DNA of 63,021 nucleotides, the filler included, from Stramenopiles sp. TOSAG23-6 (Eukaryota): assembly GCA_900128565.1 (NCBI GenBank). It is 11 parts of 11 records of this genome, joined end to end, with 100 filler letters (N's around TTAATTAATTAA, not from the genome) between each part and the next. Parts side by side here need not be neighbours in the genome. Positions count along the whole stretch, not along the records: positions 1 to 6,697 come from LT636662.1; positions 6,798 to 13,494 come from LT636663.1; positions 13,595 to 20,288 come from LT636664.1; positions 20,389 to 27,070 come from LT636665.1; positions 27,171 to 33,834 come from LT636666.1; positions 33,935 to 40,584 come from LT636667.1; positions 40,685 to 47,324 come from LT636668.1; positions 47,425 to 54,058 come from LT636669.1; 3 more parts are not named here. The stretch is one strand, 5' to 3'. Every line of letters starts with the position of its first letter. The first letter of the stretch is position 1. The notes under the pieces are model-generated. The model saw only the letters and a program-made list of their open reading frames with translations, was not told the origin of the DNA and did no database searches. A program made the position numbers and the translations under genes. Below are positions 223 to 61,036 of this stretch, piece after piece.

Positions 223-283
223 TTAATAAAAAAAATGTTTTATTCTTTTATTCTACGTAAATTATTTAATCTTCATCATCTTA

Positions 284-4347: not shown

Positions 4348-6314
4348 ATGGCAAAAGTAGTACAATCGAGAGAGACAAAAACAATACAGGCATTGGACAT
4401 TCGCGCTCGCGCATCAAGCGACCCTCTTGATTATACTCCAACATTTCTACGACATAGTTCTAAAAATAGAGATCAGAAAACCATAGTTGTATCAGATATT
4501 CATAATAGTAGTAATGGTAGTGAAATAATGGGCTTTTCGCCTGACGAAAAAGTAAACCTTCGTTCAAAAATAGCTCTTGGTATTGGTGAAGCAGCGCAAA
4601 CAATATGGGTACTTGTTGCTGGATTTTATCTTAATATTTTTCTTCTAGAAACATTGTGTATGTCAACGTCAACGGTTGGTATATTTCAACTCTGTGGGGG
4701 AATTTGGGACACAATTAATGATCCGTGCATAGGAATACTTAGTGATAAAACAAATACTCGTTTTGGTCGACGCCGGCCGTGGCTTCTAGGTGCTGCTATC
4801 CCTGCAGGGTTTTCCTATTTTTGTATTTGGATAGGACCAGATATGGGAGAAACAAGTTTATTTGCGTATTGTTTGACTTGTTATATGTTAATATCAGCAA
4901 GCATCACTTCGATTCAAGTTCAAATATCGTCTCGTACGTTTTCAAAATTGATTTTTGTACCTACAGTTTTTTTCATAGACAATTTTGTACCTAACAATTT
5001 TTTTTTTACGAAAAAAAAAAAAAAATATCTCTTCACAAAATTTTCACTCCAGAGTTAACGCGTGATTATGATGAAAGAACTGAGCTTGCCATGTGGCGAT
5101 TAGGTATTGGCAATGTACTTGGATTAATTGCTGTGTTTTTACATTCACTTATAGTTCAAGCTTATCCTGAAAGTTCAAAATTGGATGGATTTCGAATTTC
5201 AGGTTTTGTGATGGGAACAGCAATTTCTTGTTTCGCACTTTTTGCATTTTTCAATATTAAGGAAAAATTTGATATATCAACAGAGTCAAAGGACGAAATA
5301 CCTTTTCTAGTTGGTTTAAGACATGTTTTTTCCAACTTTGCTTTTATTTGTGTTGAGGGTGTTTATTTATTTGGTCTAACCGCAGTGGTGATAGTGCAGA
5401 CAAATCTAGTATTATTCTGTAAATATATTTTAGAAGATGAAAGTCAGGTTTCTTATCTAATTTTACTTGTCCAAGGAATGGCAATGTTGTCTCTTCCCTT
5501 TTGGAATTGGTTCAGCCAAAAGTATAACAAAAAAATAATGTACCATGTTGGTTCACTAGTAGTTGCAATATCATTAGGAATGATGTTTTTAATTGATAAA
5601 GGGGATATAATATTTGGATATTTCATAGCCGGTGCACTTGGTTTTTGTCTGACTGTTGTTTATTTAGTACCGTACGCAATGTTACCAGATGTTATTGAAG
5701 AAGATGAATTGAGAACTGGTAAAAGACGAGAAGGCATATATTGTGGCTTTTTTGTTGTATTTATGAAACTATCAGTCACAGGATCTTTAGCTCTTTCAAA
5801 TTTTGTACTTGGTATTTCAGGTTATAAATCCCCAACTGCTTTGTGTAGCACAGTGTCAACTGATTTGAAAGCAACTGAGTTTTTAGAAACTCAAAAGGAT
5901 TCAGTTTTGTTGGCAATTAGATTAATGATAAGCCCTGTGGCTATTGTGTTTCTAATAGGGGCAAATATTTGTGTACGAAATTATCCAATTACTCGAGAAA
6001 GCCACGCGAAATCTGTAGAATTAGTAAAAGCTAGGAAACAACATGCAAGCCAGGAAAAAACAAATATAAAAACAATGCGTTCTTTAGGAGCCATTGACGG
6101 TTTGAATACATTGGGTGAAACAAAATGTAGTACTCAACATATTGGATTTGGGAAATTACCCGTGGCTGTAAATGATGTAGGTATACGAATTCATGGAGAT
6201 ATTGAATTTGGGAAATTACCCGTGGCTGTAAATGATGTAGGTATACGACTTCATGGAGATATTGAAGATCATGATGAAAGAGATAATGTTAATGATAATG
6301 ACATTGAAAATTAA
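4348..6314 (+). CDS. MFS transporter, GPH/MFSD2 family (exons 4348-4933, 5044-6314)
   Basis: WDTINDP.IG.LSD, RFGRRRPW and MLPDVIEEDE..TGKRREG motifs; splicing restores QISSLTPELTRDYDERT. Confidence 0.9.
4934..5043 (+). mobile_element. Introner-like intron GT-TT
   Basis: GTACGTTTTC...GTACCTAAC...CACAAAAT-TT; removal restores the SLTPEL motif. Confidence 0.8.
6140..6265 (+). repeat. 60-bp coding tandem duplication (IxFGKLPVAVNDVGIRxHGD x2)
   Basis: Two near-identical 60-nt units. Confidence 0.9.
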
Positions 6315-6418
6315 AATGTAATGTAAAGGTATTTAAAATAGTAACATATGAAGTAAAATATGAAGTATAATGAAATCAAATTAATTTGATGAGCAAATTT
6401 ATATATTAATTTGTTTTC

Positions 6419-6697
6419 TTAAAATTTGACTTTATTCAATAAATTTAAAGATACTTCAATTCCTTCTATATACAAACAACTTTTCTTTACAAAAACTCTT
6501 TTTGTGTTATATTTTGCTTCATATTTTGCCAAATATTCATTCATTACTTTGAGTAAATCTGTATATGAAGATTGTTTCTTTTTCAAAACTCTATAAAAGG
6601 CAACGATTGTAATCCAAATAATATGTTCTACAACAATTCTCATTTGCGATGGAAACGAATTTGTTTTATTGTTTTCATTTCGATTTGTTTCATTATT
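6419..6697 (-). CDS. C-terminal fragment of an unknown gene
   Basis: Open frame running into the contig end. Confidence 0.35.
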   Translation of the reverse strand, partial: NNETNRNENNKTNSFPSQMRIVVEHIIWITIVAFYRVLKKKQSSYTDLLKVMNEYLAKYEAKYNTKRVFVKKSCLYIEGIEVSLNLLNKVKF

Positions 6698-6797
6698 NNN
6701 NNNNNNNNNNNNNNNNNNNNNNNNNNNNNNNNNNNNNNNNNTTAATTAATTAANNNNNNNNNNNNNNNNNNNNNNNNNNNNNNNNNNNNNNNNNNNN
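6698..6797. other. Contig-joining spacer N-TTAATTAATTAA-N (also near 13495, 20289, 27071, 33835, 40585, 47325, 54059, 60790, 61906)
   Basis: Identical six-frame-stop linker flanked by Ns. Confidence 0.97.
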
Positions 6798-7080
6798 GAA
6801 ATTTTGTACCTAACAAATTTTAGTTTTTTTTTTTGAAATATTTTTCCAAAAAGCATACACCGTGCTAAACAAATAGGAGTGACTAAAAGTTTAGAAATAG
6901 GACCAGGTAACGTTCTTTCTGGATTAATGAGAGCTGAAGGAATTAAAAGTGTATCGTGTAATGGTGATCATCTTTGTGATTTGGCTAGTTTAAATGAAAT
7001 AGTAAAGTTTATGAAATGATTAATAAAAAAAATGTTTTATTCTTTTATTCTACGTAAATTATTTAATCTTCATCATCTTA

Positions 7081-11144: not shown

Positions 11145-13111
11145 ATGGCAAAAGTAGTACAATCGAGAGAGACAAAAACAATACAGGCATTGGACATTCG
11201 CGCTCGCGCATCAAGCGACCCTCTTGATTATACTCCAACATTTCTACGACATAGTTCTAAAAATAGAGATCAGAAAACCATAGTTGTATCAGATATTCAT
11301 AATAGTAGTAATGGTAGTGAAATAATGGGCTTTTCGCCTGACGAAAAAGTAAACCTTCGTTCAAAAATAGCTCTTGGTATTGGTGAAGCAGCGCAAACAA
11401 TATGGGTACTTGTTGCTGGATTTTATCTTAATATTTTTCTTCTAGAAACATTGTGTATGTCAACGTCAACGGTTGGTATATTTCAACTCTGTGGGGGAAT
11501 TTGGGACACAATTAATGATCCGTGCATAGGAATACTTAGTGATAAAACAAATACTCGTTTTGGTCGACGCCGGCCGTGGCTTCTAGGTGCTGCTATCCCT
11601 GCAGGGTTTTCCTATTTTTGTATTTGGATAGGACCAGATATGGGAGAAACAAGTTTATTTGCGTATTGTTTGACTTGTTATATGTTAATATCAGCAAGCA
11701 TCACTTCGATTCAAGTTCAAATATCGTCTCGTACGTTTTCAAAATTGATTTTTGTACCTACAGTTTTTTTCATAGACAATTTTGTACCTAACAATTTTTT
11801 TTTTNCGAAAAAAAAAAAAAAATATCTCTTCACAAAATTTTCACTCCAGAGTTAACGCGTGATTATGATGAAAGAACTGAGCTTGCCATGTGGCGATTAG
11901 GTATTGGCAATGTACTTGGATTAATTGCTGTGTTTTTACATTCACTTATAGTTCAAGCTTATCCTGAAAGTTCAAAATTGGATGGATTTCGAATTTCAGG
12001 TTTTGTGATGGGAACAGCAATTTCTTGTTTCGCACTTTTTGCATTTTTCAATATTAAGGAAAAATTTGATATATCAACAGAGTCAAAGGACGAAATACCT
12101 TTTCTAGTTGGTTTAAGACATGTTTTTTCCAACTTTGCTTTTATTTGTGTTGAGGGTGTTTATTTATTTGGTCTAACCGCAGTGGTGATAGTGCAGACAA
12201 ATCTAGTATTATTCTGTAAATATATTTTAGAAGATGAAAGTCAGGTTTCTTATCTAATTTTACTTGTCCAAGGAATGGCAATGTTGTCTCTTCCCTTTTG
12301 GAATTGGTTCAGCCAAAAGTATAACAAAAAAATAATGTACCATGTTGGTTCACTAGTAGTTGCAATATCATTAGGAATGATGTTTTTAATTGATAAAGGG
12401 GATATAATATTTGGATATTTCATAGCCGGTGCACTTGGTTTTTGTCTGACTGTTGTTTATTTAGTACCGTACGCAATGTTACCAGATGTTATTGAAGAAG
12501 ATGAATTGAGAACTGGTAAAAGACGAGAAGGCATATATTGTGGCTTTTTTGTTGTATTTATGAAACTATCAGTCACAGGATCTTTAGCTCTTTCAAATTT
12601 TGTACTTGGTATTTCAGGTTATAAATCCCCAACTGCTTTGTGTAGCACAGTGTCAACTGATTTGAAAGCAACTGAGTTTTTAGAAACTCAAAAGGATTCA
12701 GTTTTGTTGGCAATTAGATTAATGATAAGCCCTGTGGCTATTGTGTTTCTAATAGGGGCAAATATTTGTGTACGAAATTATCCAATTACTCGAGAAAGCC
12801 ACGCGAAATCTGTAGAATTAGTAAAAGCTAGGAAACAACATGCAAGCCAGGAAAAAACAAATATAAAAACAATGCGTTCTTTAGGAGCCATTGACGGTTT
12901 GAATACATTGGGTGAAACAAAATGTAGTACTCAACATATTGGATTTGGGAAATTACCCGTGGCTGTAAATGATGTAGGTATACGAATTCATGGAGATATT
13001 GAATTTGGGAAATTACCCGTGGCTGTAAATGATGTAGGTATACGACTTCATGGAGATATTGAAGATCATGATGAAAGAGATAATGTTAATGATAATGACA
13101 TTGAAAATTAA
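11145..13111 (+). CDS. Duplicate MFS transporter (intron 11731-11840)
   Basis: Identical ORFs. Confidence 0.9.
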
Positions 13112-13636: not shown

Positions 13637-14880
13637 ATGCCTCCTGCAGGGGATGATGTTATTTTTGGTGAAAATGTCATGGGTGAAAAGACTGGCCATT
13701 TGCAGATGGATTCATTTGAAGAAATGTTAAAACTCCTTGTAAATGCGGGGTATTTTCGTGCAGGAAATACAGGCCTTAAAATGTTCGACAAGATTATAGG
13801 TGGCCTCTGTTGGTGTATAACTGCGAGTGCTGCGAGTGTTGATGTTGANNNNNNNNNNNNNNNNNNNNNNNNNNNNNNNNNNTTGGCAAAAAAGTCACAT
13901 TATCTGAAACTGTTGTTCGTTCTTTGGAGCGTATGAAGTGCCCACATCCTTTAAAAGCACATCAAATTCAAGGTCTCGATTTCGCTGCGTTACTTCCTAT
14001 CATTAAATGGGCAGTGAAAGGTGTTGTTGCTTTTCGTGTGGATAACGCTCGCCGTATACGCGACTATTCGCATCATCACTTTCAAAAGCATAATCAATGG
14101 CCTGATGAAATGGACAAAAAGTCAAATTTTTTACATGAGCTGGAAGAAAAATATAGACCGCGTCGCGTAATGAAACGCCCCGTTGAGTTATGGGGGGATC
14201 TTGATAATAGTTCAGAACGTGAGTTATTGCAGACTTGTTTATTAAAATATATCTGTGTCGGAGCAAGATACTGAAGATGCACGAAATCTCGATGGAAAAC
14301 GAAAGAAGAAGAAGAAAACAGGATTTGACATGAAAGTTTCGGACCTTTTCAAATTAGAAGCCGAGAAAGAAGCTGAGGCTCAGAGACAAGAATCTGAAAA
14401 AGAAAAAGAATTATTAAAAGTATTAGCGGAAACAGCAGACGTTGAAGAAAAACAAATTGATAAGAAGCAGGTTGGTTCAATTATGATGCAAGACGTAGAC
14501 AGTATTACATCAGCTGCAGGTACGTTTTCATCTTTTTTCAAATTTATTTTTTTTCGTACGCAATTTTGTACCTAACGATTTTTTTTTTAATTTTAAAAAA
14601 AAAAAAATATATTTTTTACAATAACGATAAAGAAACAAAACTGCTTCAGAAAACGATCCAAGATCGCGAGCCACAAACAAAACGTGGCTTAGAAGCTGCG
14701 TACGTTCTACACTTTTAGATACACTTTTAGATTTCAATATTTTTTTGCTAGAAAAAATCATAACTGACAATTTTTTTCTACATCAAAAAAAAATATTTTT
14801 TCACAATACATATTTAAACGTCGTTTAGCTAATATTGAACGCAAAATAGCCGAAGCAGTTACAGAAAATGCAAAAGATAA
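13637..14880 (+). CDS. CCDC93: Coiled-coil domain-containing protein 93, partial (gap, frameshift near 14250, two introns)
   Basis: LLVNAGYFRA....FDKIIGGLCWCI and MKCPHPLKAHQIQGLDF motifs. Confidence 0.85.
14520..14626 (+). mobile_element. Introner-like intron GT-CG
   Basis: GTACGTTTTCATC...GTACCTAAC...TACAATAA-CG; frame restored (SAADKETK). Confidence 0.7.
14700..14811 (+). mobile_element. Diverged introner-like intron GT-AT
   Basis: GTACGTT...CTGAC...TCACAATAC-AT; frame restored (EAAFKRRLANIERK). Confidence 0.7.
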
Positions 14881-17800
14881 AACACTTCTTTGTAATGATG
14901 ATAGCAATTGCAAAGCAGGCGAAATTATAGGTACTGGGGCAATTTCACCAGTGAGTGAGCGTATTTTAGCAATATTTAATTTTTTGTCAATTCCCGTCGT
15001 TTCTTTGAGTTTTTGTATTGAATTTAGCGATGCATAGGTTGAAATATCTACAAGAGAAAACAACAAATTTAAAGTTGGATTCGTCGATACATCTATACTT
15101 TCGCAGTGTTCGTGATTCCGACACTCTAAACCCAATCGTCCTGCAATAAATGCTGATAAATGGGGATCAACTCGAAGTCGTGTAGCAATTGTTTCAATTA
15201 ATGTATTATTTGAAATACATATTGAAAAAAACAATATTTTATGCAATGCCCCTGTAATATGTTTTTGATATTTCTCATTCAAATTAACCCCATGTGGTGT
15301 TTTTTGTTGAGCTATATCGAAATCAAATGAAAATGTCATTTCTACTGGCAAAGAAGTATTCGAAAACAGTACAAATAAACCATCTACAATGCAGTTGGCT
15401 GCAAGTTGTGTGATATCACCTTCAGCAATCAAAGAATCATAGCTACAAAGATTAAGCAAAACTTTCATGAAGGAGCATGCAATATTTGGTGACATGATTG
15501 TAGTTTCTTTCTTTGCAATGTCTTCATTCTTTGCAGCCGTAAGGTTTAAACGTGTAAGGCGAAGTAATTCCCGAATTATACCTTGAATTCGTTTTAGATC
15601 TTGCTTCAAGGATAGTTCAGAAGAAGATAAAGTTGAATCTTTCATACATTCGTTGAAAGGTATTTTCTTTGCTTTATCTGTATAAACCGAATGAACTCTT
15701 GTACAGATATGCAAAATTTTCGAGAGTTTTTCAAATGATGCTTTCGAGACATCAACACAGAAAGGAAGACATGAAGGTAAAATTGCAGGCGCCCATGGCA
15801 AAGATAACTGTGCTGATAATGGTGTAGCCACTGTACCAACAAGTTCATGTAGTCCCTTGAGATAAGCAAGATCGATCACATGAAATGTTTTATCTCTTAA
15901 GTTATACCATCTTTCATCGCCATCATCATACACGACAAAATGCTGTCCAGATGAACTATTGAAATTTTCAATCACCCCTTCGTACCATTTGCGACCTGCC
16001 CAACGTAATGCTATACGAGATCCTACTAAAATAGATGGATTATTCTTCCATGCTTTGCCATCATCAAGTTTTTGTAAAAATATTTGGCCAGAGTCTTGTT
16101 CCAAAACCCAAGAATCCGTGTCAGTATCATCTTCATTTGGTTCACCTGAATTGTGAAAAAAAAATATAAGAAAAAACCCGTTAGGTACAAAATTTCGTGT
16201 GAAAAAAAACTAAATTAGAAATTCCTGATGAAAACGTACCACGAAGCCTTTGTAAAAGCCACGAAAGTTTTTCTTTGTCATCGTCAGAGCCAGTCATATG
16301 CGAACTTTCAATGTGTCGGGCAAATTTTGGTTCTCGTAGTAATTGATAAAGTCTTTGTTTGTCGCGTGCGTGAAATCCACGCAAGCGCAACCATCGTCCA
16401 TGTATTGTGAAAAAATATTTCAAAAAAAAATCGTTAGGTATGAAATTTCGTATGAATCTCCAGCACTTCTACAGTTTGAGAAGCCACCAGCTTACCAATT
16501 TCTTTCGCTGATATCGAGGGAGACGCTTTAATATCCTGTTCAATTAGAACTCGATAAAACCCAGGCGCTGGTATTTTTGCTTGCATTTTCAGTGTCACTG
16601 TATTTTGATATATAGGACCACTTTTAAGTCCGCTAATAAATATTTCTTTCCATTCACGAGTGTTTTCATTTGCTATATTTTCCTGACACTTTGTGGAGCT
16701 GTCATGAATTTTAGGGTATCCTAAGGATGGATTACCAGCATTTGAATGTTGCACGACACACAGCGATCCAACTATTTTCATCAAACGAGATATTGAACGA
16801 ATGACAGACTCACCTGATACATCATTCACTTTTGATTTTCTATTTGAAAGGTCTTGCTCGGAAATATTAGTTTTGAACATCCCAGGGTTTCGCCAGTATT
16901 GTACAGATAATGTGTTTGCAAAATAGCAGAATAAAAATCCTGAATTTGGGTCATAACAAACAGCATCAGGAGGTACATTTAAACTAAGTTGATTCGATTG
17001 GTCATTATCATTTTCTGGTGCGTTTAAATTTGAATGATCAAATTTGTCTCTATTTACTAACTGGATTTCAATTGAACGTTTACTAGAATTATTTGTGTTG
17101 ATTCTACTCGACTTTTTATGAGAATGTTTATCATTGTATTTTTCTTTGGGTAATAATGGTATTTTATTACTACTAAATATTGTTGAGACATTTCTTTCAG
17201 GTGAAATATTTGAAGAGTCTACAGTTGACAATGGATCAATGGCTGGATCTTCAACATTTGAGTGTGAAGCAGCTTCAGTAGCTTGCATGACACGAAATGT
17301 ATGTTCGGGAAATGGGTGATATGCCATGCGACATTCATAGCATGTCTGACATAAGTCATAGTCTAGACAAGTATTACATTTCCACCTGACACCTTCAATA
17401 GGTGTTTCACGGCAACCATCACAAGTGACATTTAAGTGGGTAGTCTCAAATTTAGCCGAAAGTGACGATGACTGCTCCAATCTGGATTCATTTAAAGGAT
17501 TCGAATCACCTACAACAGCTTTATCAGAAACTTTACTTAAGCTTAAAGCCGCAGCATTCGCAGCATTTCTAGCAGCAGCAGCAGCAGCAATACTAGAATT
17601 TCTATTAGTTGTACTTTGTGCTATAGTTGTTGCATCCACATCAAATACAGGTGATGACGAAACGAATTTTCGGGGATATGATAGACCGTCAATATGTTTC
17701 GCCATTTGTGCAGCTGTAGAAAAAATGTGTTTGTGTGGGCTGCGTTTAGAATTTTGTCGGACCTTTCTACTGTATAAATGCTCTTCGTCGTCTTCTTGAG

Positions 17801-20235: not shown

Positions 20236-20288
20236 ATGTATTGTAAAAAAAATTAAATTCGAAATTTGTTAGGTACAAAATGTCGTAC
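20236..20288 (-). mobile_element. 3' half of introner-like intron (AT)
   Basis: GTACCTAAC...TACAATAC-AT at the contig end. Confidence 0.75.
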
Positions 20289-20464: not shown

Positions 20465-23400
20465 GTTGGTATCAATAATTGAGTCTGACCCAAAATTATA
20501 TCTTTGTCTGAAATTGGTTCTCGAAGTGAACCACTTCGTTGAATCTCTTGCAGTATTTCATTATCACCATACAAGAACGCAAGTTGATTTACAGTATCAA
20601 TATCTCTTTGATTTTTACACTCAATGAGGGCTTGTCCAGAAGGATTTCGAGCATACAATGAAATTTTTAATTTATATGGCACAGAATTTTCACCATCATT
20701 TCGTGCTTCTGGAAACGGTTTTATCATTACACTTTCATTCCATTGGACAAAATGCTCCGGTATAGAGAATTCAATTACACGTATCCATAAAGGAAATCCA
20801 CATTCAACAATAGTCTCTTTGGCAACTGTTATTGGCAAGTTTTTAACCGAAATCCAATCACCGCGCGATTTAATTTTGTTATTTGCTTGATATAATGATT
20901 TTTCTTCTCGTACTATCGTAGTGTTCAACACATTCGCTGCACAGTGTGTAATGATACTACCTGGTAATATGACGTCATCTGCTTCAGAGTCTTTTGTTAC
21001 ACTAGTCACCAGAAGACCTTTATCATGAACGACGAGACCTAATAAGTTAAGACTAAACAAATCAGTTTCAAAGCGAACAATTTTTTTTGTTTCCTCGCTA
21101 ATAGAATCATTCGTTGTATTTGTTGTGGTCATTTTTTTACACTTTGAGCGTGCTGGTGCAGTACATCGAAATGTTTCGTCGTCACATAACGTTGCTACAG
21201 CATATACATTATTACTTATTTTGTTCTTTGCACAAATATGAGCTATTTGAAAATTAACACAAACCTGTTGCATGTCAAATATAGGTTCAATAGTCTTAAT
21301 ATCCTCTTTTACAGCAAAACTTTCTTTTGTTTCAACATTTTGTTGTTTACTCTTATGTGTTGGTTGTAATAAAGGATTCAACAAAGGTATGTTAAAAACA
21401 GTATGAAGTCTCATTCTATTTTCAGTAGCAATGAACAAAGAATTTTCAAGTATTAAAAGTTGTGCTGCTAAACGACACATAAATAAATTTTCCTTCAAGT
21501 GACGTAAAACTGTACATTCCAATACTTCTTTATACCAATTATCGTTATCCACAATTTCTTTTTTCTCCTCACGATTTCGATGATTTCGTTGTTTACTTTT
21601 TTTAGGCATTTCATTTTTTAATTTCCAAAATAGAAGACATTCGTCTTCAACTTTGATAGTATTGACATATTCTACATTAAACAATGACTCTTTTTCATTT
21701 ATTTCAGTGAATTTATCTACATTCCTGACTTCAGATGTAATGATTGATGATGATCCTCCCATTACGTGTAAATAGCCTATTTGTAGATCTGTGCGACATT
21801 TTTTTGTAGTTGTAGTAGTAATATTTCCACTCTGTGCGATGAAACTTTTATCTCGACTTATCTTTATCCAATTGTCATGTATATCTTTTTTATTAGGTAA
21901 TTTCCGTCTTTTTCCTTTCTCAGATTTCTTAGAATTGAATAATTTTTCTACGATTTCTTCAATATTGACATATGCCGACAAAGAAACTATACAACTACCC
22001 AACATGTATTTTGTAAAAATATTTCAAAAAAAAACTAAAAATTGTTAGGTACAAAATTTCGTACGAAAAAAAATAAATTCGAAATTCAAAAAAAAATAAA
22101 ACATACATTACATTATCCTGTTTTGGATCAAGTATATACAATTCAATATTTGCATTAGCTATAAAGTTTCTTACACAAATCTTTGCATCCATAGCACTCT
22201 CCTTACATTCATCGATAATCATCGACAAAGGTAACCCAAATACAATTTCACTCAATACAGAATTTAAATTGGTCGATTGTTGAGATTTATTAGGCTCATA
22301 TATTGGATATTTCCATTTGATTTCGTGTTGCGTGGTACTTTGTACATTTTGTTTTGCTTCGCGTTTATACCAATGAATGTTTTCAATGATTCTTTTACAA
22401 AATTTCATAGTTAAAGAATCCAAGTGCTTCATCTTATCACAGTCCATAGCAACACAAGCAATCACCTTATTAAAACACAATTTTTTATTGCAAGCTTTAA
22501 TAAAGCCAGTGCTAAATAAATGTGAAGCAAATGCACCACCAATATTCAACCATACATATAATAATGATATATTATTGGTCATATTACTTGTACTAGCATT
22601 ACATAATAATGGTACATTTTCATCATAGATAGATTGAAGACGATCCTTGGCAAAAACGAGTTGTTGTATATAAGACGAAATATAATTTATTCCCTTGTTG
22701 ATCAACTGTTTACGTTGGACATTAACATCATCAAATTCTCCCTGCAGTGAGAAAAATATACTACAATCGATATTCGTTAGGTATGATACAAAAATTGGAT
22801 TAGGTTCAAAACAAAAATAATTTGAAATGAATTATGGAAACATATATATTCCTGAATACAAGTACCAGCATCATTGTACAAATGTGGAAGGTCGCTGATA
22901 ATACACTCTTTGTTTACTCCATCTGTTGTTACTATTGCTTGCAACTTTCGTCTATAATTAAAATTAGTCTTACTTTCCTGCTCATCAGAGGTATCTAAAT
23001 ATATATAAGAATTCTCAGTATCATCAAGTGAATTTCTCTGAGCACCAACAATATCCATATCTATATCAAAACGCTGTTCGTGTGTTTCATTGGAATTGTT
23101 CCCTACATTACATCTTACACCAACTTCATCCACTCTAACATAATCTATCGATTTGCCATTCGTTGATTCGCCCACATTCGTCATCGGCATACATAAAGGC
23201 GAAATACAAAGATGTCGATCTAATTCTGGCGCAGTCCACGTGAATACACTACTTGTTAGAGGTGGCAATATATTGTGAAAAATATCTTTAATTCGACATT
23301 CGTTAGCTACACAATTTCATTAGAAAAAAAATAAATTTGAAATTCATGATGAAAACGTATCAAATAAAAACTCAAAAAAAAAATTTCATTAGAAAAAAAA

Positions 23401-25608: not shown

Positions 25609-25660
25609 ACGTATTGTGAAAAATATGTTTTTAGTTTAAAACTTATTAGGTACAAAAAAA
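25609..25660 (-). mobile_element. 3' half of introner-like intron (ends GT)
   Basis: GTACCTAAT...CACAATAC-GT. Confidence 0.7.
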
Positions 25661-28502: not shown

Positions 28503-28615
28503 GTATGTTTTATTTTTTTTTTAACAAAAAAATCGAATTTATTTTTTTTTTCGTACGAAATTTTGTACCTAACATTTTTTTTTAGATTTTTTTGAACTAT
28601 TTTTCCAAAATACAT
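28503..28615 (+). mobile_element. Introner-like intron GT-AT
   Basis: Full family consensus. Confidence 0.8.
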
Positions 28616-47523: not shown

Positions 47524-49828
47524 ATGCACCAAATGATTCTTCGTATCTTTGAGTATGTTTATAATTAGGGTTGGGGTTTCGATTATTTTTAGACGTTTTA
47601 GATATTTTAGTATTATTTTTAGTATATCGAAATGTTGAACGAGAGTGAGTCCGATTATGAGTTCGTCGCGACCGACTTGAAGAATGCTCTGAAGATTTAC
47701 TGTCTATTTTAGATTTTGTATTCTTTGGATTAAAAATAAATAAAGGTACTGGGTGGGAAGGACGTTAATATTGTAGAAAAATATGTTATATTTTTGAAAA
47801 ACATCGTTAGATATAAAATTTGTTTTTATGAAAATGTACGATGAAAAAAAAAATGAAATAAGTGAATACAAATTCAAAAATATTTTTGAAATATTTTTTT
47901 CATAGTAAAATTTGTACCTAACAAAAAAAAACAAAAAAAACAAAAAAATGAAATGTAAGTGAATACCGTACAAGTCAAAACAGATACAATCACATCCAAC
48001 ACCAGATCGTTTCATGCGCGCATGTGTTAAATCACTCAAGTCTGTGTCAACACGAAATGTTCCATTTGAAGCTGTGAGTAGTTGAATGGTCATACCACTA
48101 CTACCTAAATTTCGATCAACATAGGAAACATCAAAAATATTGAGTGTGAGATTTACAGCTTCTAAAATATTACCACATGTATTGTGAAAAAAAACAAGAA
48201 TTTTACAAAAAAAAAAAAATCGTTAGGTACGAAATGTACTATGAAAAAAGAAAACTATAAAGTAATACATTCATGATGAAAACGTGCATTCACCCGTTGA
48301 CAGAGAAACACCATTTGATTTAAGCCTGTGGTGAAACGCATGTATTTTGGAAAAATATTTCAAAACAAAAAATTCATTAGGTACAAAATTTCGTACGAAA
48401 AAAAAAACGAATTTGAAAAAAAATAAAACATACATGGAAACGGCGTCTAAATTTAGGTAATAAAGAAGTCCAATCACTGACTGCATCATTACTACATTTA
48501 ATCTCTTCATAGAAATCGTGAAATATTTTTTCGTGATTATTCTTTTTTTGCTTTTGTTTTTGTTTAGAATTAATTCGGTTTTTACGAAATTGATGCTTCC
48601 GACGGGATTTTTGATTTAGTTTATTATGAGTTCTATTACTATTAAGATGTATGGTACGACGCCGTCCAAGAGTGGTGGGATTAGTATTTGTGTTTTGATG
48701 AATTTCACCTCGGGCGAATAAGACTACACTAAATTGATGTCGGACTCCCATGCCTGTGCACTTCTTTAAAAAACATCTTAGAAAAGAGTTAAACATAATT
48801 TCCCAAATCATATCACCACTAGGTGTTAGAACAAACATTTCCAAACTGACTTGGATTAACAGAACTAAATGACACGATCTAGTACGACAGATATATTTTG
48901 TAGAGTTTTTAGTGACACCTGAGAAAACGCAAACCTGTTCTGGTCCTAGTCTATTCTCAGCGAGCTTCCCTAATTCAACACTAGTAGCTAAACCACGAAC
49001 GCGACCACTATCTAAATTTAATTGTGTTAATGCTGAATTATGACCACGAACAAGTTGTTCTACCTTAATCCCAACACCTGCAACATCGGCATACTGAGTT
49101 GAGAATAAAGTTCTTCCTTTCAAAGCTTCACGGACTGTTGGTGAAAAAGTATGTCACACAAAAAAAAATCGTTAGTTTGTCATAAAAAAAAAGAAAAATA
49201 AATTTGAAATTCATCAACGCCACGCACCTGCCCACATCTCAGCCAAATCAATTGTAGACCCAAATCCAAAAGATATCTCTACAAAATCAACACTTGTTAA
49301 TGTATGAGTTGTTTGTCGGAGCCAAACTAGCTGTCGAGCTTGGACATCAAATGCTTCGGCGACTCGTTTGGCAAGACTAATTTTCATGTTTCCACGAACG
49401 CGATCTTTTATAGCGACGACCAATGTCAAACGTCGCTTTTCATCATTCGGATGCTCCAGTTCGACTAATGTACCGGATCTAAGACTAGGAAATATCTCGG
49501 GGTTGATTACAAGTTCTTGAGAAGAAAAATCACTATCATGAACATAAAGAGAGCATTGAACAGGTTTTAGTGGTGTAAGTTCAGCTGGAGGTGGTGACAA
49601 CCAAGCTTTCTTTTTTAGACGTCGCATTCCAAGGCGCCATTTATCTTTTGCATCGCTTGAATCGAGGCGACTTATGACACCCCGGGAAACACTCCGACCG
49701 TCAGAACGATTACGGCGTTGACCACGTAATTGAAGTTGGAGTCTTGTATATTCATTCTGCTTCTGGAGATGAGCAAGCCTAGATCGCCTAGTCTTGCGTA
49801 CGCTCGGATGGAAGTGCGACTGACTCAT
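47524..49828 (-). CDS. DEPDC5: GATOR1 subunit DEPDC5/Iml1, N-terminal part
   Basis: Spliced product contains ELVINPEIFP, RTRSCHLVLLIQVSLEM, GNILEAVNLTLNIF...VDRN and CFDLRPSHPVPLF. Confidence 0.9.
47766..47971 (-). mobile_element. Introner-like intron GT-TA containing an inverted family core
   Basis: Removal gives CICFDLRPSHPVPLF, collinear with the DEPDC5 motif. Confidence 0.8.
48177..48287 (-). mobile_element. Introner-like intron GC-AT
   Basis: GCACGTTTTCATCATG...CACAATAC-AT; frame STGECGNILEAVN. Confidence 0.85.
48340..48433 (-). mobile_element. Introner-like intron GT-AT
   Basis: Frame RRRFHAFHHRL. Confidence 0.88.
49135..49227 (-). mobile_element. Diverged family intron GT-AG
   Basis: GTGCGT...ACTAAC...CACCAAC-AG; frame EMWAVREAL. 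Confidence 0.85.
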
Positions 49829-50107: not shown

Positions 50108-52296
50108 ATGCCCCGTAAAAAGAAGGGATCGAAAGTCAAAAAGAATGTTAGTTTCGAAGCTCCAATTGTAGAAAATGTCGAAGAGATACCATTCATTCGT
50201 TCTAATAGTAGTCGGCAAAATAAAAACGTGCCACCCGAGCAATGCCCAGGTATGTCAGATGCAGAGTTTGAGCAAGTTCGCGAAGAATGGATTCAGAACT
50301 ATGCTGCATACCTTGATGAAGTGAAGGATTCAGACCCCGAAACGTATAAACGTTTAATAAAAGACCTTCAAGCAAGTGTACAATCTAGGAATAGCGGCGA
50401 GAATGGTTTTTCACCTAAAGTCCCTGGCATGGAAGGAAAAGTAATGGGAAAAGGTGGCATAGTTTCTGATAAAGAACCCGAGGGAATAAAAATAGAGCCT
50501 GAGATAGGGTTTGTCATCAAAACTTTTGATCTTAAAACAGGAAAGAAAGTTTTTATTAATGTAGTTCACTCGCATTTGTTGAAGAAACCGGCAATGAAGA
50601 AAAAAATTGGTGAAGATGGAAAAGAAATTGAAGGATTGAATATTCCTTTAAGCTTAGGTGTTCCTCGACTAGCAAAGGACAAAAAAGGTGCATCTTGTAT
50701 TGTATATGATATGGTTGTGAATAGTGTAGTAATTGATGAAGCAACAAGTGACAAAACGGGGAACTATCGCCATTTTGTTTGCAATATGGCATTGACTTAT
50801 GTTCAACAAAAGTTCCGATGTGAAGTAGATTTGAAATATAAATTACCGCGCACAAAATATATATATGGGGAATCAGATAGTAAATTAGATAAACAAGAGA
50901 AGACGAAACCACGTTCTCAATATATAAGAAAAGACTTAGCACCAAAAATTGAAGAAGTGGGCCGATCAGAGAATCCCAAGAATAATTCGAATTTATCCAA
51001 ATCAAAAGTTGGTGGTAGCCCTAACCCTAACCCGAAAAAGAAAACCGGAGTAAATGTAAAAGAAAACTCTGGAAGCAACAGAGTGACTAAACTTTCTTAT
51101 GCTGCATACAAAATACGATGTCGTTATGAGAATGATCCTCCAGAAGGACGAGAATTGACAGATTATCAAAAGGTCAATGGGTGTGGAGCTCATGTACGAT
51201 TTCATCATGAATTTCAAATTGTTTTTTCATACGAAAGTTTGTACCTAAGATTTTTTTTTGAGATGTTTTGTTTTCATCATGAATTTCAAATTCATTCTTA
51301 CTTTTCCCATCAAATCTTGATGTTTTTCATACCTAACGAATTTCAAACTTGACATATTTTTTCACAATACTTGATAATACACTCCTTGGATTACCCCATC
51401 AATTATTGATATCATTTGATCTATCAAATTTTCGAGTTGTTGATATCATAACATTGTACAATGAATATCAAAAATCATCAATACCATTAAAGGAAAGCCA
51501 AAAATCATCAAAACCATTAAAGGAAAGTGTAAAGAAAAGTATACATATCGAAATGTCAAATAATTTTATCGCTGTTAGTATAGTTGGTTATCGAAAACAG
51601 GAAATATTTTTGCCATGCCCAGTTTTGAAAGGAAACGTTGATGAAATTGCGACATTTAATGGACAACAAAAAACATTAGATATTCTTCTTCAAGTTGACC
51701 CATCAGGCGGTTCTTGTCGAGGTCCCGACCCAGGATCTCGAGCATGGTTACTGGCAAGAGCATTGGAACAACCGAATTCTGCCGGGAAGCCGATAATCAC
51801 ACAGGATACAAAAAGTTTTATTTCTCCTGATAATGATACAATTGCTGAAGTTTCAGATGAAGTCTGGGCGGAGGATGCTTTTCATGCTCAGGATATGTTA
51901 TCTCAGCATTATTTATCCCAAAAACAAGAAAATAAAACAAAGCGTTCGAAAGACAAGGCAGAAGAACGACGAAAAGCAGAAGACGACCCTAATTTAAATA
52001 TTGAATATATTGATGACGTCAATGAATGGGCAAAGAAACAAAATGTAGATATTAAAGCTCCTGTTGGAACTGATGGTTCTATTCAAATTAAGGGAATGAA
52101 TGTTTCTATAGATGCCGAGAAAGTAACCAAAGCAAAACTACAAATTGATAGAAATCGAAAGCTAGAGGAAGAAATTATGAGAAAAAAAGCTGAATCGAAA
52201 CTTGCCGCAATTCCATGCCCGGTCCCACGGTCTCACGACCCCCATAGTAAAGTTCTTTCAGCAACACACGAAATGATGTTTGATTTACTAGATTAA
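50108..52296 (+). CDS. PIH1-domain protein (exons 50108-51193, 51373-52296)
   Basis: IEPEIGFVIKT...KVFINV, IPLSLG.PR...DKKG..C.VYD. Confidence 0.88.
51194..51372 (+). mobile_element. Introner-like intron GT-TT, tandem double core
   Basis: Frame CGAHDNTLLGLP. Confidence 0.8.
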
Positions 52297-52434: not shown

Positions 52435-54006
52435 CTACATTACAAAAGCTCCACTAGGAGTCACATCACCTGAAACACTTGTCAGAGTAACTCTTTTTTT
52501 CTTCCTCTTCTTTTCGTTTTGTTCTTTTTCAGAAACATGCGAATCCCTCGAAAGTTGTTTCTGTGATTGTAGGACACTTCCCACCGTTTCATCATTCGCA
52601 CCCCCTTGATTTTCAACAACTTCTTCACCTTCACTTGCTAAAAAACCATCATCATCTTCATCACCATCGTCTTCTTCTTCAGCGGCCGATCCCATTGAGT
52701 CATCTAAATCATCTAAATCTTCTACCTCATCATTTTTACTATCAGACTTGTCACCTTTAGGTACATAATTATTAATTGTACTGGATACTTTTTCACTATT
52801 TCCAATCGAATCATCATTTGGATTCTCCCAACCAAATGAAGTACGATCAACGGAAGAAACATCTCCAACACGAGTCAACAAAACGCGTTTTTTACTCTTT
52901 TTTAGAGGAATGCCATCATTAGTAGTATTCTCACTTGGCTCACCATCAACCGTCTTCCGTTTCCTACTTTGATTTTGATTTCCCCCACTATTTATTTCCA
53001 AATCTGAATCAGTATTTTTACTATCATTTTGTTGCTGAATTTCATCATTTGCTTTCTTGTCATTTTCATTATTTATTGACAAACTAATTTTAGTTTTTTC
53101 AGGTTTATTCTTTTTTACAATTTTCTGGAATATAACGGGTAGTTTACGTCGCATTACTTCAGGGACATCAACGCCTGTAAGTACTTCACCTAACTCACCT
53201 TCCGTAAATGTTAGAAGAGTAATATACCCATCTTGTGAGCTGATTGCAATACAGTCATCACCAGCACCATTAGCACACCAGGTAATATCAGTAATCTGAG
53301 CATAATGTACATTACCAACAAGTGCTATTGGATCAGCTTGTTGAGTATCGTATACTAAAATATTTGACAAAGTTGCAACAGCAAATACTACGCGGTATGG
53401 TAAAGCAATCAGTGGAGGACTCGACGGCACTCCGTTTTCAGGTTCTCGTAGTTTAAATGTTATGTCAAAAAAAAATAAAAAAAAATTCGTTAGGTACGAA
53501 ATTTCGTAGGAAACAAAATAAATTTGAAATTAAAATGACAAAAACGTACATAATCGAGGATGACAACGAACTGCAATTGAGGGCTGATCCATACCAGGAG
53601 TTGGTAAGTGTAATGCTGGTCTAGAAAAAACGCCTCTTAAAAAGATAAATGTTGTTGGTACTGCGGATTCTCCTGCATTCGACATAAAACATCCTGTTGG
53701 TGTGAATAAGAATGATCCATCTGGTGAAGTACTCAACCGACGAAAAAAAGTAGGAACAGTTTCGTCCATGAACATTGCATGTTTTTTCTGAGGCGCTCTA
53801 CGATTTTTCCCTTTCTTTTTATTCATCTCGTCGGTTTCGTCATCATTTGAATCTTTTCCTTCATTTTTTCCTTCACTTTTTCCTTCATTATCAGAATGAA
53901 CTGTTTCAGAACCTACAGGTTTGTGACACAGTGATCTATGTTTTACAAGTGCTTTCACAACGCATGTAAATCGCTTGCCCTTGGATGCTGCAAAACGCTT
54001 CATTCC
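52435..54006 (-). CDS. CHAF1B: Chromatin assembly factor 1 subunit B, C-terminal part
   Basis: TFFRRLSTSPDGSFL.TPTG, LPYRVVFAVAT, NVHYAQITDITW, SSQDGY. Confidence 0.92.
53457..53549 (-). mobile_element. Introner-like intron GT-AT
   Basis: Frame VRCHPRLFKLR. Confidence 0.9.
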
Positions 54007-54158: not shown

Positions 54159-54234
54159 TTTCTAATTTAATTTTTTTTTCATACGAAATTTCGTACCTAA
54201 CGATTTTTTTTTTTAATATTTTTTCACAATACGT
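54159..54234 (+). mobile_element. 3' part of introner-like intron (ends GT)
   Basis: CGTACCTAAC...CACAATAC-GT. Confidence 0.75.
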
Positions 54235-55116
54235 GTAATGATTACAAAGCTAAAAACAGAATGTGGTTACCAATTCACATCTAAGTTAGAAGGAATGTTC
54301 AAAGATATTTCAATGTCAAAAGAAACAAATAGAAACTTTCTTGAAAGTTCACGGCTAAAAAACTCCAAGATAAATTTATCAGTGTATGTCTTAACCACAG
54401 GATTTTGGCCAACTGTTAGCGTACCTGTGTGTAATTTACCAAAAAATGTTTTACATTGTAGCAAAATATTTCGTAGTTTTTACCTAAATAAGTATAACGG
54501 ACGACGTTTGCATTGGCAAACAAATATGGGTACTGCTGCTCTGAAATTACACCTGCCAAAGGGAAAAGAGGGGCAAACTCGAAAAGAACTTTATATGACA
54601 ACATATCAAATGTGTATACTTATGTTATATAATGATTCCGATACATTAACATTTGCAGATATAAGAAAAAAAACAAATATTCCTTTGGCTGAATTGAAGA
54701 GATGTCTTGTATCGTTTTGTATTCCAAAGTGTAAACTTTTGATAAAACAACCAGACCCAAGAAAATTTAAAAAAATTGATGATTCAATGACATTTACGTT
54801 TAACGATAATTTTAAATCGAAACTATTTCGTGTGAAACTTCCACTTGTAAGCATCGTCGAGAATAAGTCTGTAAAATCAGGTATTCCTTCTGGTGTTAAT
54901 GAGGATAGAAGACACCTCATTGAAGCAGCCATTGTTCGAATTATGAAAGCTCGAATGCAATTAGATCATAATGCCCTCATTGCTGAAATCGCCCGACAAT
55001 TGAACTCTCGTTTTCGCGCTACGCCACAACAAATGAAAAAATGTATTGAAAGCTTGATTGAGAGGGAATATATTGAACGCGACAAGAATGACAGAAAAGT
55101 GTATATGTATATATAA
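54235..55116 (+). CDS. CUL3: Cullin-3, last exon
   Basis: KLKTECGYQFTSKLEGMFKD, IEAAIVRIMKAR. Confidence 0.95.
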   Translation, partial: VMITKLKTECGYQFTSKLEGMFKDISMSKETNRNFLESSRLKNSKINLSVYVLTTGFWPTVSVPVCNLPKNVLHCSKIFRSFYLNKYNGRRLHWQTNMGTAALKLHLPKGKEGQTRKELYMTTYQMCILMLYNDSDTLTFADIRKKTNIPLAELKRCLVSFCIPKCKLLIKQPDPRKFKKIDDSMTFTFNDNFKSKLFRVKLPLVSIVENKSVKSGIPSGVNEDRRHLIEAAIVRIMKARMQLDHNALIAEIARQLNSRFRATPQQMKKCIESLIEREYIERDKNDRKVYMYI

Positions 55117-56385: not shown

Positions 56386-58373
56386 ATGCAACATTTTCTT
56401 CTGTATGGCATATTCTTTTTTGGTTTCCTTCAAATTAATCCATCCGAAGGAAGTGGAACGAATACATTTTGTCCAAAACCACTAATCTTCCCAAAAAATA
56501 AAACCCCATCAACCAAAACTGCAGTCATTGAGTGTCAGCCTAATTGCTTTCTTCCCGTAGATGAGATTGCTGGGTATAAGTACCACGATGTGGCTCTTTT
56601 TAAGCTGGTTTATTTTGGAGTTGGTTCAGTCCTTTTGTGGGCCACTGTAGTAACACAGGTGTATAAACGAGAAAAAAGAAAACATTATCTTTTCAATACT
56701 ATGCTTATTGCCATATTATGCGCGGTACTTACGTCATATCTTCCATTGTTAATATACAATAGTGACATGAATGATCATTATTGTGCAGATGCAACCTCGC
56801 CGTTGAAACAGGGGGAAATAAGCATCAGTAAAATTTCGGAAACTGATCATTGCATTGTACAAGCTATTTCATTTACCTATTTTATTCTCGTTGCTTGCTA
56901 CATGTGGCTGAGTGTAGCATTTCAAATATACACCAGAGTGCATCATACTCCAAAATATATGACACAGAGAAAACAAATTATGATGTTGCTTCTCCCACTG
57001 CTACTACCGTTTGTTCATATAGGACTACTTTTGTCAGAAAAAGCATTTGGTTATTCGTCTCCAATGCACCTCTGCATGTTCAATGCATCATCTGTAAAAG
57101 AAGCATTTTTTCACTTTTATGTTCCGATCATAACAATTTGGTTTTTAGGAATCATTTTGCTTTTCTTAACTTCTTTCCATATTGGTTTTACAGCAGGGGA
57201 AGTAGGCTTACAAAAGAGAATGTATGTTTTATTTTTTTTCAATTTTTTGTCTAAATTTTCTTTTCGTACGAAATTTTGTACCTAACAAAAAACAATTTTC
57301 AAATATTTTTCCAAAATACATGGCATGTAAATTTTCATGAGGAATTTCAAATGTTTTTTTCACAAAGAAAATTTCATACCTAACGATTTTTTTTACTAAA
57401 AGAAATATTTTTTCACAATACATGTATACCTCTTATTTATTTACTTTCATTTAGTATAGTTGTGGGGCCTATTCTAATATATCAAATATTAATGTTTGTA
57501 GAATTTAATGATAATGTTCTACAGACAAGTGCAAATAATTGGCTTAATTGTCTTCGCGCAAATAAATTTGTAGGTATTGAAGATCCAGCAACAGATTGTG
57601 ATGCAATACTTTCTAATGATTGGAGTAGTTGTGTGGTGGAATTTATCAGTGGTCGTAAAGAATCTTATTCAAATTGCGTTGGTAGTGATAAAAAAGGCAC
57701 GAATTCAGGTTGTGGATGCGGTTCCAATGTAAAATCTTTGGGTTTTATCATTGAGGGATTCCCAATTTTTTTTGAATTGTGTGTAGGCGCTTCAAGTTAC
57801 CTTATTTTTTTCCTATATTTTCCTTACATGAAACTTTTAAGGAAATGTCTTCATCATAAAAAGGATGATAAAAAGAAGAAACAAAATGATAAAAAGGAGA
57901 AAAAGAATGAGAAAAAGGAGAAAAACAAGAAAAAAAATGAGAAAAAAGAAAAAAAGGAAAAGAAGAAAAAGAATGAGAAAAAAGATGATAAAAAAGACGA
58001 TAAAAAAGATGATAAAAAGAAGAAGAAGAAAAAAAACGATGTTAAGAAGAAGAAGAAAAAGAGTGACGAAAAAGACGACAAAAAAAAGAAAAAGAACAAA
58101 AAGAACAAAAAGAAACATGTAAAAAATCCATTAGCACTTGAAACTAAAATGGAGGCATTTGAGACTAAAATTGATGTCCAACTAGACAGTGTATCATCAT
58201 ATTCATATTCATCCGATTCTTCTTTATCATCACTAAGGGGCAGGGATGGCAAAAAAATACGTTCCAGAACAATTCAACCGAAAGACTTGAGAAATAAATC
58301 CAAACATAGTCATCCTAGACGAGTCGATTCCAAGGAAATTGCTCAATCAATGCTTGCACCTGAGATGCCATAA
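56386..58373 (+). CDS. Multi-pass GPCR-like (Frizzled/Smoothened-like) membrane protein with a Lys-rich tail; includes a 5-nt microexon
   Basis: Signal peptide, CP.PL..P and C.P.C motifs, multiple TM segments; exons 56386-57221, 57322-57326, 57424-58373. Confidence 0.7.
57222..57321 (+). mobile_element. Introner-like intron GT-AT
   Basis: Full consensus. Confidence 0.88.
57327..57423 (+). mobile_element. Introner-like intron GT-AT
   Basis: GTAAATTTTCATGA...CATACCTAAC...CACAATAC-AT. Confidence 0.85.
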
Positions 58374-60220: not shown

Positions 60221-60398
60221 GTGAGACATTGTTTCCAAGGGGAAAAAAGTATTTTGGAGATTATTTTAACTAGAAAAAAAAGTATTTTGGAGATTATTTT
60301 AACAATACAATCTTACCAATAAATTCAACAAGTGATTAGTGCTTTCTCTCTTTATTGTTCTCTTTATTGTTCTCTTTATTGTTTTTTAATTAAAAAAA

Positions 60399-60724
60399 TT
60401 ATTCAATAGGTAAAATATCAGGAATTTGATTCACATGAGGCAAAGCCATATTATAGCATTTTATCAACTCTTGGCGGGTCAAAGGTCGAGTCGATCCGTT
60501 TTTCTTCATTGTACATGAATTGTAAAAAAAGTATTTCAAAAAAAAAATTGTTACGTACAAAATTTCGTACAAAAAAAAAAGGTTAAATTTGAAATTGAAA
60601 TGAAAACGTACACTCTTTCGATATCGACAGAGGGCCAATACTTTCACGAATTAAGCGCAATACTTTCAAATCAGCACGATTACACAATCGTCGAACTTGC
60701 CTATTTTTACCTTGATTTATTGAA
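60399..60724 (-). CDS. RsuA/RluB-family pseudouridine synthase, last two exons
   Basis: Spliced product SINQGKNRQVRRLC...LKVLRLIRESIG...RPLTRQE. Confidence 0.8.
60515..60611 (-). mobile_element. Introner-like intron GT-AT
   Basis: Frame SKECTMKKNG. Confidence 0.85.
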
Positions 60725-60789
60725 ATGTATTTTGGAAAAATATTTCAAAAACAAAAAAAATCGTTAGGTACAAAATTTCGTACGAAAAA
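60725..60789 (-). mobile_element. 3' half of introner-like intron (AT)
   Basis: Family consensus at the contig end. Confidence 0.75.
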
Positions 60790-60889
60790 NNNNNNNNNNN
60801 NNNNNNNNNNNNNNNNNNNNNNNNNNNNNNNNNTTAATTAATTAANNNNNNNNNNNNNNNNNNNNNNNNNNNNNNNNNNNNNNNNNNNN

Positions 60890-61036
60890 TTTTTTTTTGT
60901 TTTTAAAAAATTTTTTCCCAAAAAAAAAAAAAAAAAATTTTTTTTTTTTTTTTTTTTTACTATTTTTTTTTTCATATGAAATTTTGTACCTAAACAAACA
61001 AACAAAAAAAAAATTTTAATATTTTTTTCAATACAT
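60890..61036 (+). mobile_element. 3' part of introner-like intron (AT)
   Basis: GAAATTTTGTACCTAAAC...TTCAATAC-AT. Confidence 0.6.

Follow-up and report, generated by a model that had tools for sequence, protein, structure and literature searches.

Probable introners with AT, rather than AG, at most 3′ ends in conserved genes of Stramenopiles sp. TOSAG23-6

Introduction

What marks the 3′ end of an intron that does not end in AG? The question is raised by a 63,021-base stretch of DNA from Stramenopiles sp. TOSAG23-6 (assembly GCA_900128565.1; the window, meaning the whole stretch that was analysed), in which one short repeat interrupts conserved genes and, when cut out, mostly leaves as a segment that begins with GT and ends with AT. 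An earlier note on this DNA had read these repeats as a family of non-canonical, mostly GT-AT introns with a free 3′ dinucleotide, in which the branch site, spacing and the upstream motif, rather than AG, would define the 3′ site. We find that interpretation partly supported. The elements behave as introns, and their non-AG 3′ ends are well supported by reading frames and orthologues; the one copy seen spliced in RNA ends in AG. The dominant AT is better explained as a duplicated 2-nt target than by the earlier reading.

Repeated introns and unusual intron ends are both known in other eukaryotes. Passages of two surveys of introners describe families that bring their own 5′ site and co-opt from the duplicated target a 3′ site ending in AG or, rarely, AC (PMC9860276, PMC12130899); in the parts of the 2025 survey that we cite, families with unfamiliar splice sites were discarded unless backed by RNA (PMC12130899). 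Excerpts on Fritillaria borealis report that most introns are non-canonical, with 3′ ends of AU and AC, and that the U2AF subunits are duplicated (PMC13326754), and excerpts on Amoebophrya report repeated introns with inverted repeats at both ends, short direct repeats at the borders and no conserved end dinucleotides (PMC7789003). Full-text literature searches returned no description of GT..AT introns, in agreement with the earlier note, or of introners in MAST-type stramenopiles, and the passages of the MAST single-cell genome and Incisomonas papers considered here, supplements aside, do not mention non-canonical introns (PMC5778133, PMC8163842, PMC12614181).

Results

A repeat family interrupts unrelated genes

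The window is a chain of ~6.7-kb contigs and not one molecule, the linkers between contigs consisting of 44 N, TTAATTAATTAA and 44 N (6698-6797, 13495-13594 and onward). With at most one mismatch allowed, the core TTTTGTACCTA occurs 40 times against 2.3 expected, the 5′ motif RTAYGTTT occurs 34 times against 17.7 expected, and blastn with seven copies as queries gave 45 merged intervals, ~40 of which are family loci. These counts, far above chance, confirm a real repeat family of ~95-110 nt at ~40 loci, as the earlier note had proposed. A young group of copies reads GTATGTTTTATTTTTTTTCAAATTCGAATTT...CGTACGAAATTTTGTACCTAAC...GAAATATTTTTCCAAAATACAT, and an older, more diverged group GTACGTTTTCATCATGAATTTCAAATT...TACCTAAC...TTTTCACAATACAT. 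The carriers are unrelated genes (MFS, VPS13-like, PP2C, HECT, DEPDC5, PIH1, CAF1B, cullin and others), and near-identical introns at unrelated sites, here 23 full copies and ~11 cut by contig ends, are a hallmark of introners.

Donor and acceptor could be fixed for 23 full copies (numbered as in Table 1), to which all dinucleotide and frame counts below refer. The earlier note had listed 24; in the remaining one (16400-16497) we recognise the 3′ half, with an uncertain donor. Its copy at 4934 does belong to the family but is not independent, being the same DNA as the copy at 11731, since contig 1-6697 is an exact duplicate of contig 6798-13494. All 23 frame-interrupting copies lie in the sense orientation, whereas four copies outside any interrupted frame are found in either orientation. 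Two introns are composite, one with its 5′ half tandemly duplicated and the second donor unusable (23268-23429), the other with an internal partial second copy (51194-51372).

Most contig ends of the window fall within a family copy. The assembly thus breaks at the repeat, whose true density should be at least the ~1 copy per 1.6 kb observed. In a DNA run from seawater, bins of element sequence had a summed contig depth of 15,000-34,000 compared with 0.5-5 for exons, and this depth, which does not equal copy number, is a rough sign of a very abundant repeat. The exact 19-nt core pattern was met in Joint Genome Institute (JGI) metagenome contigs at three loci, all unrelated (L001-L003), in no viral contig, and once, by chance, in a Bacteroidales metagenome-assembled genome (L004).

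Excision at a fixed position restores the frame and leaves mostly AT ends

We cut each copy from the R of RTAYGT to 2 nt past ACAATAC or AAAATAC, with acceptors shifted by +1 or +2 as controls. In 23 of 23 copies this rule, which is that of the earlier note, gave the longest open frame over the junction. In the VPS13-like gene, removal of seven copies (6-12) yields a single frame of 1,565 codons, and in IML1/DEPDC5 removal of three (17-19) yields one of 620 codons. The 5′ ends so defined are GT in 20 copies, AT in two and GC in one; GT or GC in 21/23 and TACCTAAC-like branch-site motifs in nearly all copies are what U2-type introns, with their GTRNGT-like 5′ motif and CTRAY branch site, would show. 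The AG expected of such introns at the 3′ end is found in only 2/23, against AT in 15, TT in three and CG, GT and AA in one each, a tally close to the earlier one. Copy 19 (49227) could equally use an in-frame AG 12 nt further on, which would make three AG ends. Among the nine 3′ halves at contig ends, eight end in AT and one in GT. In most copies, therefore, the 5′ end looks canonical, and the 3′ end, always 2 nt past ACAATAC or AAAATAC, is not AG.

The final dinucleotide is variable, as the earlier note held, but not fully free: position -1 is T in 19/23 copies and position -2 is A in 18/23. Only 7/15 of the older copies end in AT, approximately what neutral drift at their overall divergence would give on a rough estimate, and the ACA(A/G)TAC just upstream is much better kept. 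A partial check of the window found no intron outside the family, consistent with the earlier note. Two further frame shifts within otherwise unbroken genes, at ~18690 (minus strand) in a C8 run and at ~41570 (plus strand) in an A6 run, probably reflect homopolymer errors rather than introns.

Introns 22 and 23 are separated by a 5-nt exon, GGCAT (57322-57326). Here a young copy landed 5 nt before the donor of an older copy, and both must be cut out to keep the frame; such an exon would require ordered or recursive splicing.

Orthologues place the cut within the codon

Frames alone place the site no finer than 3 nt. Comparison of the spliced proteins with orthologues, a check proposed in the earlier note, backs non-AG 3′ ends in five genes (MFS transporter, CAF1B, HECT, DEPDC5 and cullin). 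Use of a nearby AG, which the note had raised as the contrary outcome, is rejected in four of them, where it would remove conserved residues: LTPE (MFS), F-KLR (CAF1B), GNILEA (DEPDC5) and RVMITK (cullin).

For the MFS gene (copy 1, a GT..TT intron whose cut cannot slide), the rule gives the product ...IQVQISS-L-TPELTRDYDERT (QISSLTPELT), and three orthologues read QITSLTPELTSDYDERT, QITSLTPELTSDYDERT and QIGALVPELTLDYDERT (QITSLTPELT), with SLTPELT exactly as after the GT..TT cut. The Pfam MFS_2 profile runs through the junction, with position 120 before the donor, 121 at the split codon and 122 after the acceptor. The MFS exon has one public protein at 97% identity, P0121 ('GSMAST32.ASY1.ANO1.132.1 assembled CDS'; GSMAST32 in this label is presumably a MAST-type designation). 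Its gene model ends the intron (11731-11851) at an AG 9 nt downstream and reads ISSQLTRDY, so that the four conserved residues LTPE are lost and one, Q, is gained, a net change of -3.

The other genes bear on the same point. Human CAF1B, ...AVRCCP-VYFELRP..., matches ...AVRCHP-RL-F-KLREP... at copy 21, with F as the split codon. At copy 16, the HUWE1 and Rsp5 alignments begin at the split codon of MFDGEEGLD, six element-coded residues remain unaligned and the upstream exon ends ...KWKI. The DEPDC5 alignment at copy 17 likewise starts from the split codon, CGNILEAVNL versus human QGNYLEAINL, and the nearest AG is the one that would remove GNILEA. In the cullin gene, the conserved RVMITKLKTECG directly follows a half copy of the element, with no AG between the branch site and RVMITKLKTECG. 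Across a 17-residue exon of IML1, the Pfam profile has 28 positions against 18 residues, and human DEPDC5 has 24 residues there.

One copy is seen spliced in RNA

Parts of contig 20389-27070 are present in seawater runs, three of RNA and several of DNA, which were compared on that contig only; RNA cover is thin, with one junction visible and the uncovered parts uninformative. RNA-run contig X8 record 27 (174 nt, 0 mismatches) joins 22846 to 22741 and thus skips exactly copy 7, which on the gene strand reads ATATGTTTCC...CTCACTGCAG and at which neither border can slide. DNA-run contig X2 record 4 is unspliced through copy 7, and in the seawater DNA run exon, element and exon are spanned at a depth equal to that of the exons. 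This proves for copy 7, one of the 23 junctions, that the element is removed at the RNA level, that the 5′ cut falls before the R of RTAYGT even where R is A, and that the 3′ cut falls at the position homologous to the AT of other copies.

Discussion

A probable transposon-like introner with a co-opted AT

We consider it likely that the elements are introners, that is, short non-autonomous transposon-like repeats turned spliceosomal introns, most of them ending in AT. Each copy carries a 5′ site of U2 type (G/A-T-A-Y-G-T), a branch site like that of yeast, TACCTAAC, and a T-rich tract, and ends with ACAATAC or AAAATAC. Insertion would take place into an AT whose context, YAT|G, is loosely palindromic, and would duplicate that AT, so that the intron would come to end in its second copy. 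The donor is preceded by AT in 14/23 copies; 12 of the 15 AT-ended copies show this, as do all nine young GTATGT copies. Y is preferred before the flanking AT and G after it, and the elements have short inverted ends (GTAT...ATAC). The AT on both sides and the Y/G context suggest a small DNA transposon whose 2-nt target-site duplication probably left the 3′ AT. The major spliceosome would then remove the elements, with a cut after C-A-T restoring the frame where other eukaryotes use C-A-G, a second splicing step that tolerates T and other bases at -1, and a 3′ site that the conserved 3′ motif fixes at a distance of 2 nt.

The claim that branch-site spacing defines the 3′ site did not hold. The last CTRAY-like motif lies 25-51 nt from the 3′ end in 21/23 copies, some young copies leave a TTTTAG unused ~10 nt after the branch site, and folding is weak (mean z -0.76), the two ends pairing in 4/23. 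A branch-point ruler, given the varying distance, and definition of the ends by a hairpin, given the weak folding and rare end pairing, are therefore both unlikely and were rejected.

Several observations weigh against the introner reading or its details. None of the AT, TT, CG, AA or GT acceptors has been seen in RNA: the junction check proposed by the earlier note bore out the family position at copy 7, whose end is AG, and 22 of the 23 junctions rest on frames and orthologues. Some in-frame, stop-free GY..AG alternative is available in 21/23 copies, copies 18 and 20 having none. Element sequence is at high depth in contigs of the RNA libraries too, and one RNA-run contig (X4 record 16) runs on unspliced over an exon-intron border, so that intron retention, or carry-over of DNA into these libraries, may be involved. 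The terminal inverted repeat is only ~4-6 nt long, and we found neither an empty site nor an autonomous partner for the transposon mechanism that we infer.

A bolder reading, to which we give almost even chances, is that in this lineage nearly all nuclear introns derive from one introner family and the spliceosome has no requirement for a 3′ AG, GT..AT being normal, the cut set by the ACAATAC-type motif plus 2 nt and the last two bases left to drift. Had the AG requirement been lost, second-step recognition would be changed, for example through lost or diverged contacts of U2AF1, Slu7, Prp18 or Prp8.

Alternative registers and mechanisms

Among the alternatives, an error of 2 nt in the register survives best, although we think it unlikely. 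The young copies would then be AT..AC introns (ATGTATGT...AAAATAC), within reach of the minor as well as the major spliceosome. An intron may acceptably end in AC, and a non-canonical AT..AC class is known; moreover, since AT stands before the donor in 12 AT-ended copies and in all the young ones, GT..AT and AT..AC would give the same mRNA there, an equivalence that the earlier note did not consider. The RNA junction of copy 7, however, cuts exactly before the R of RTAYGT with no room to slide, copies 3, 11 and 24 end in AT without a flanking AT, a 2-nt shift in the MFS gene turns a conserved L into F, and the 5′ motif GTAYGT is of U2 type. On these grounds we prefer the GT register, and to that extent the GT-AT form of the earlier note is favoured. 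U12-type introns have the 5′ motif ATATCC or RTATCCTT and a branch site, TCCTTAAC, close to the 3′ end. A U12-type assignment was rejected, the 5′ motif here being RTAYGTTT and the branch site lying 25-51 nt from the 3′ end, far for such introns.

Ordinary GT..AG introns, using the next AG in the element or the exon as in the public gene model, are quite improbable. That model does join ISS to QLTRDY, most copies do offer an in-frame AG and the sole RNA junction does end in AG. Such introns would, however, cost the four conserved segments named above and leave copies 18 and 20 unexplained; the AG nearest to copy 11 creates a stop codon; and the AG alternatives share no common place, whereas in every copy the rule picks the same homologous position.

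Least plausible of all, to the point of being nearly dismissed, are origins outside the spliceosome (dead insertions, amplification artefacts, elimination at the DNA level, or hairpin-defined introns as in euglenids and Amoebophrya), for which the short inverted ends (GTA...TAC) and the abundance of element sequence in RNA libraries might speak, against which stand the frames restored in 23/23 copies, the strong 5′ splice-site and branch-site motifs, the weak folding, and an independent DNA run with exon and element at the low depth of exons beside an RNA contig without the element. Structure-defined introns were specifically rejected for want of stable end-to-end pairing (z -0.76, 4/23), and elimination of the ciliate internal eliminated sequence type because a seawater DNA contig spans exon, element and exon at exon depth and long frames are obtained with the standard genetic code.

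Relation to known systems and implications

Set against the systems introduced above, as far as the cited passages describe them, the family is distinguished by a 3′ end that is fixed in position but not AG, combined with a canonical 5′ site and branch site. It resembles the introners of Micromonas, Aureococcus, Chrysochromulina and other protists in being high-copy, short, non-autonomous and in sense within genes, and in carrying part of the splice signals while taking the rest from the duplicated target (PMC9860276, PMC12130899). It differs in that the co-opted 3′ end, AG or rarely AC in the introners described there, is here AT, drifting to TT, AA, CG and GT. Unlike Fritillaria, an animal whose 5′ ends are also non-canonical according to the excerpts (PMC13326754), the present host has canonical-looking 5′ and branch sites and departs at the 3′ end only. 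With the introner elements of Amoebophrya, as far as they are described in PMC7789003, the family shares a marine protist host, repeated introns, inverted ends and short direct border repeats that let the cut slide; there the inverted repeats are 8-20 nt long and form hairpins, whereas here they are ~4-6 nt, no hairpin is predicted and GT is present in 20/23. Like AT-AC introns (U12-type and rare U2-type), 12/15 AT-ended copies can be written as AT..AC, while the family does not fit that class in its 5′ motif, its branch-site distance or its single RNA junction.

Should RNA confirm the AT acceptors, the host would be a free-living protist whose introns, throughout the genome, combine a canonical 5′ site and branch site with a non-AG 3′ end made by the target duplication of a transposon, and it would offer a natural system in which to ask what fixes the 3′ splice site. 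An introner could evidently spread without supplying an AG. Gene models of this host that enforce GT-AG would be wrong at family introns, as in P0121 without LTPE, and other models may be too. Surveys that filter on canonical ends, as described in passages of PMC12130899, would miss the family.

Table 1. Copies of the repeat family in the window; introns are delimited by the cutting rule described in the text, and ends are given on the gene strand.
Feature	Position	Strand	Ends	Evidence and remarks
Intron 1, MFS_2 transporter gene	11731..11840	+	GT..TT	Frame test, Pfam MFS_2 continuity, orthologues; duplicate DNA at 4934-5043
Intron 2	14520..14626	+	GT..CG	Frame test; acceptor 3 nt upstream (TA) fits frame equally
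Intron 3	14700..14811	+	GT..AT	Frame test; 5′ flank GC
Intron 4	16146..16239	-	GT..AG	Frame test; AG at position homologous to AT of other copies
Copy 5, 3′ half only	16400..16497	-		Ends ACAT; donor uncertain (GGTAAG region)
Intron 6, VPS13-like gene	22004..22106	-	GT..AT	Frame test
Intron 7	22742..22845	-	AT..AG	RNA-run contig X8 record 27; only junction seen in RNA
Intron 8	23268..23429	-	AT..AT	Frame test; 5′ half of element in tandem duplicate
Intron 9	24311..24409	-	GT..AT	Frame test
Intron 10	24809..24909	-	GT..AT	Frame test
Intron 11	25093..25232	-	GT..AT	Frame test; 5′ flank GT, hence no AT..AC equivalent; AG 5 nt upstream of acceptor gives stop codon
Intron 12	25609..25691	-	GT..GT	Frame test; 5′ half diverged
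Intron 13	28503..28615	+	GT..AT	Frame test
Intron 14	28700..28831	+	GT..AA	Frame test
Intron 15, PP2C gene	32093..32193	+	GT..AT	Frame test; use of an in-frame AG 33 nt upstream would lengthen the product by 11 residues
Intron 16, HECT ligase gene	33556..33701	-	GT..AT	PDB alignments from split codon M of MFDGEEG
Intron 17, IML1/DEPDC5	48177..48287	-	GC..AT	Frame test; DEPDC5 alignment from split codon C of CGNILEAVN
Intron 18, IML1/DEPDC5	48340..48433	-	GT..AT	Frame test; no in-frame GY..AG alternative
Intron 19, IML1/DEPDC5	49147..49227	-	GT..TT	Frame test; ends by rule, GT..AG if end is 49135
Intron 20, PIH1-domain gene	51194..51372	+	GT..TT	Frame test; composite copy; no in-frame GY..AG alternative
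Intron 21, CAF1B	53457..53549	-	GT..AT	Human CAF1B alignment; Pfam positions 302, 303, 304 continuous
Intron 22	57222..57321	+	GT..AT	Frame test; 5 nt upstream of intron 23
Intron 23	57327..57423	+	GT..AT	Frame test; follows 5-nt exon (57322-57326)
Intron 24	60515..60611	-	GT..AT	Frame test; 5′ flank GT; flanking frames short
3′ half copy at contig start, upstream of cullin-3 exon	54159..54236	+		Ends ..CAATACGT; no AG from branch site to RVMITKLKTECG
Nearly full young copy, cut by contig end	47425..47526	-
Copy cut by contig end	6798..6856	+
Copy cut by contig end	20234..20288	-
Copy cut by contig end	20389..20471	-
Copy cut by contig end	26988..27070	+
Copy cut by contig end	27171..27265	+
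Copy cut by contig end	33935..33994	+
Copy cut by contig end	38768..38821	-
Copy cut by contig end	54006..54058	-
Copy cut by contig end	60725..60789	-
Copy cut by contig end	60891..60998	+
Copy antisense to PP2C gene	32245..32341	-		At end of PP2C frame; not acting as PP2C intron
Copy interrupting no frame	32406..32490	+
Copy interrupting no frame	47769..47882	-
Copy interrupting no frame	47894..47924	+

Gene content and other features of the window

The window has a G+C content of ~33% and gives long reading frames under the standard genetic code. Its genes form a eukaryotic set: the C-terminal part of cullin-3, an MFS_2 transporter, PP2C, a HECT ligase, IML1/DEPDC5, PIH1, CAF1B, a VPS13-like protein, a VHS-GAT protein, GST and a thioredoxin-domain protein. 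The closest relatives of the cullin are only ~55% identical, and after P0121 those of the MFS exon follow at ~50% identity, among them proteins of Triparma and Tetraparma, which we take to be stramenopiles. We take the host to be an uncultured marine stramenopile. For the VPS13-like gene no long public gene model was found, and a protein-based scan of JGI metagenome contigs with its 305-residue exon found no relative. An Rfam scan of the 63-kb window gave no match at all and thus no small nuclear RNA, U11, U12 and U6atac included, a weak negative at 63 kb, and a scan of the same window for transfer RNAs gave no match.

The two ends of contig 20389-27070 (20389-20530 and 26930-27070) are mutually reverse-complementary over at least ~140 nt, with the same flanks around the family cores at 20418 (minus strand) and 27041 (plus strand), which looks like an inverted chimeric assembly end. 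Near ~61440-61500, read on the minus strand, four CCCTAA units stand next to a weak match to the family, an arrangement like that of a chromosome end.

A frame of 1,340 residues (41553-45574, plus strand) has 38-43% G+C, compared with ~33% elsewhere, a strong skew of G over C and repeated SGNI..GG motifs; its residues 1006-1073 match a Peptidase_S74 (endosialidase chaperone) domain. A 60-nt tandem duplication (6139-6266, equal to 12936-13063) close to the 3′ end of the MFS gene repeats ~20 residues, and P0121 has the same repeat.

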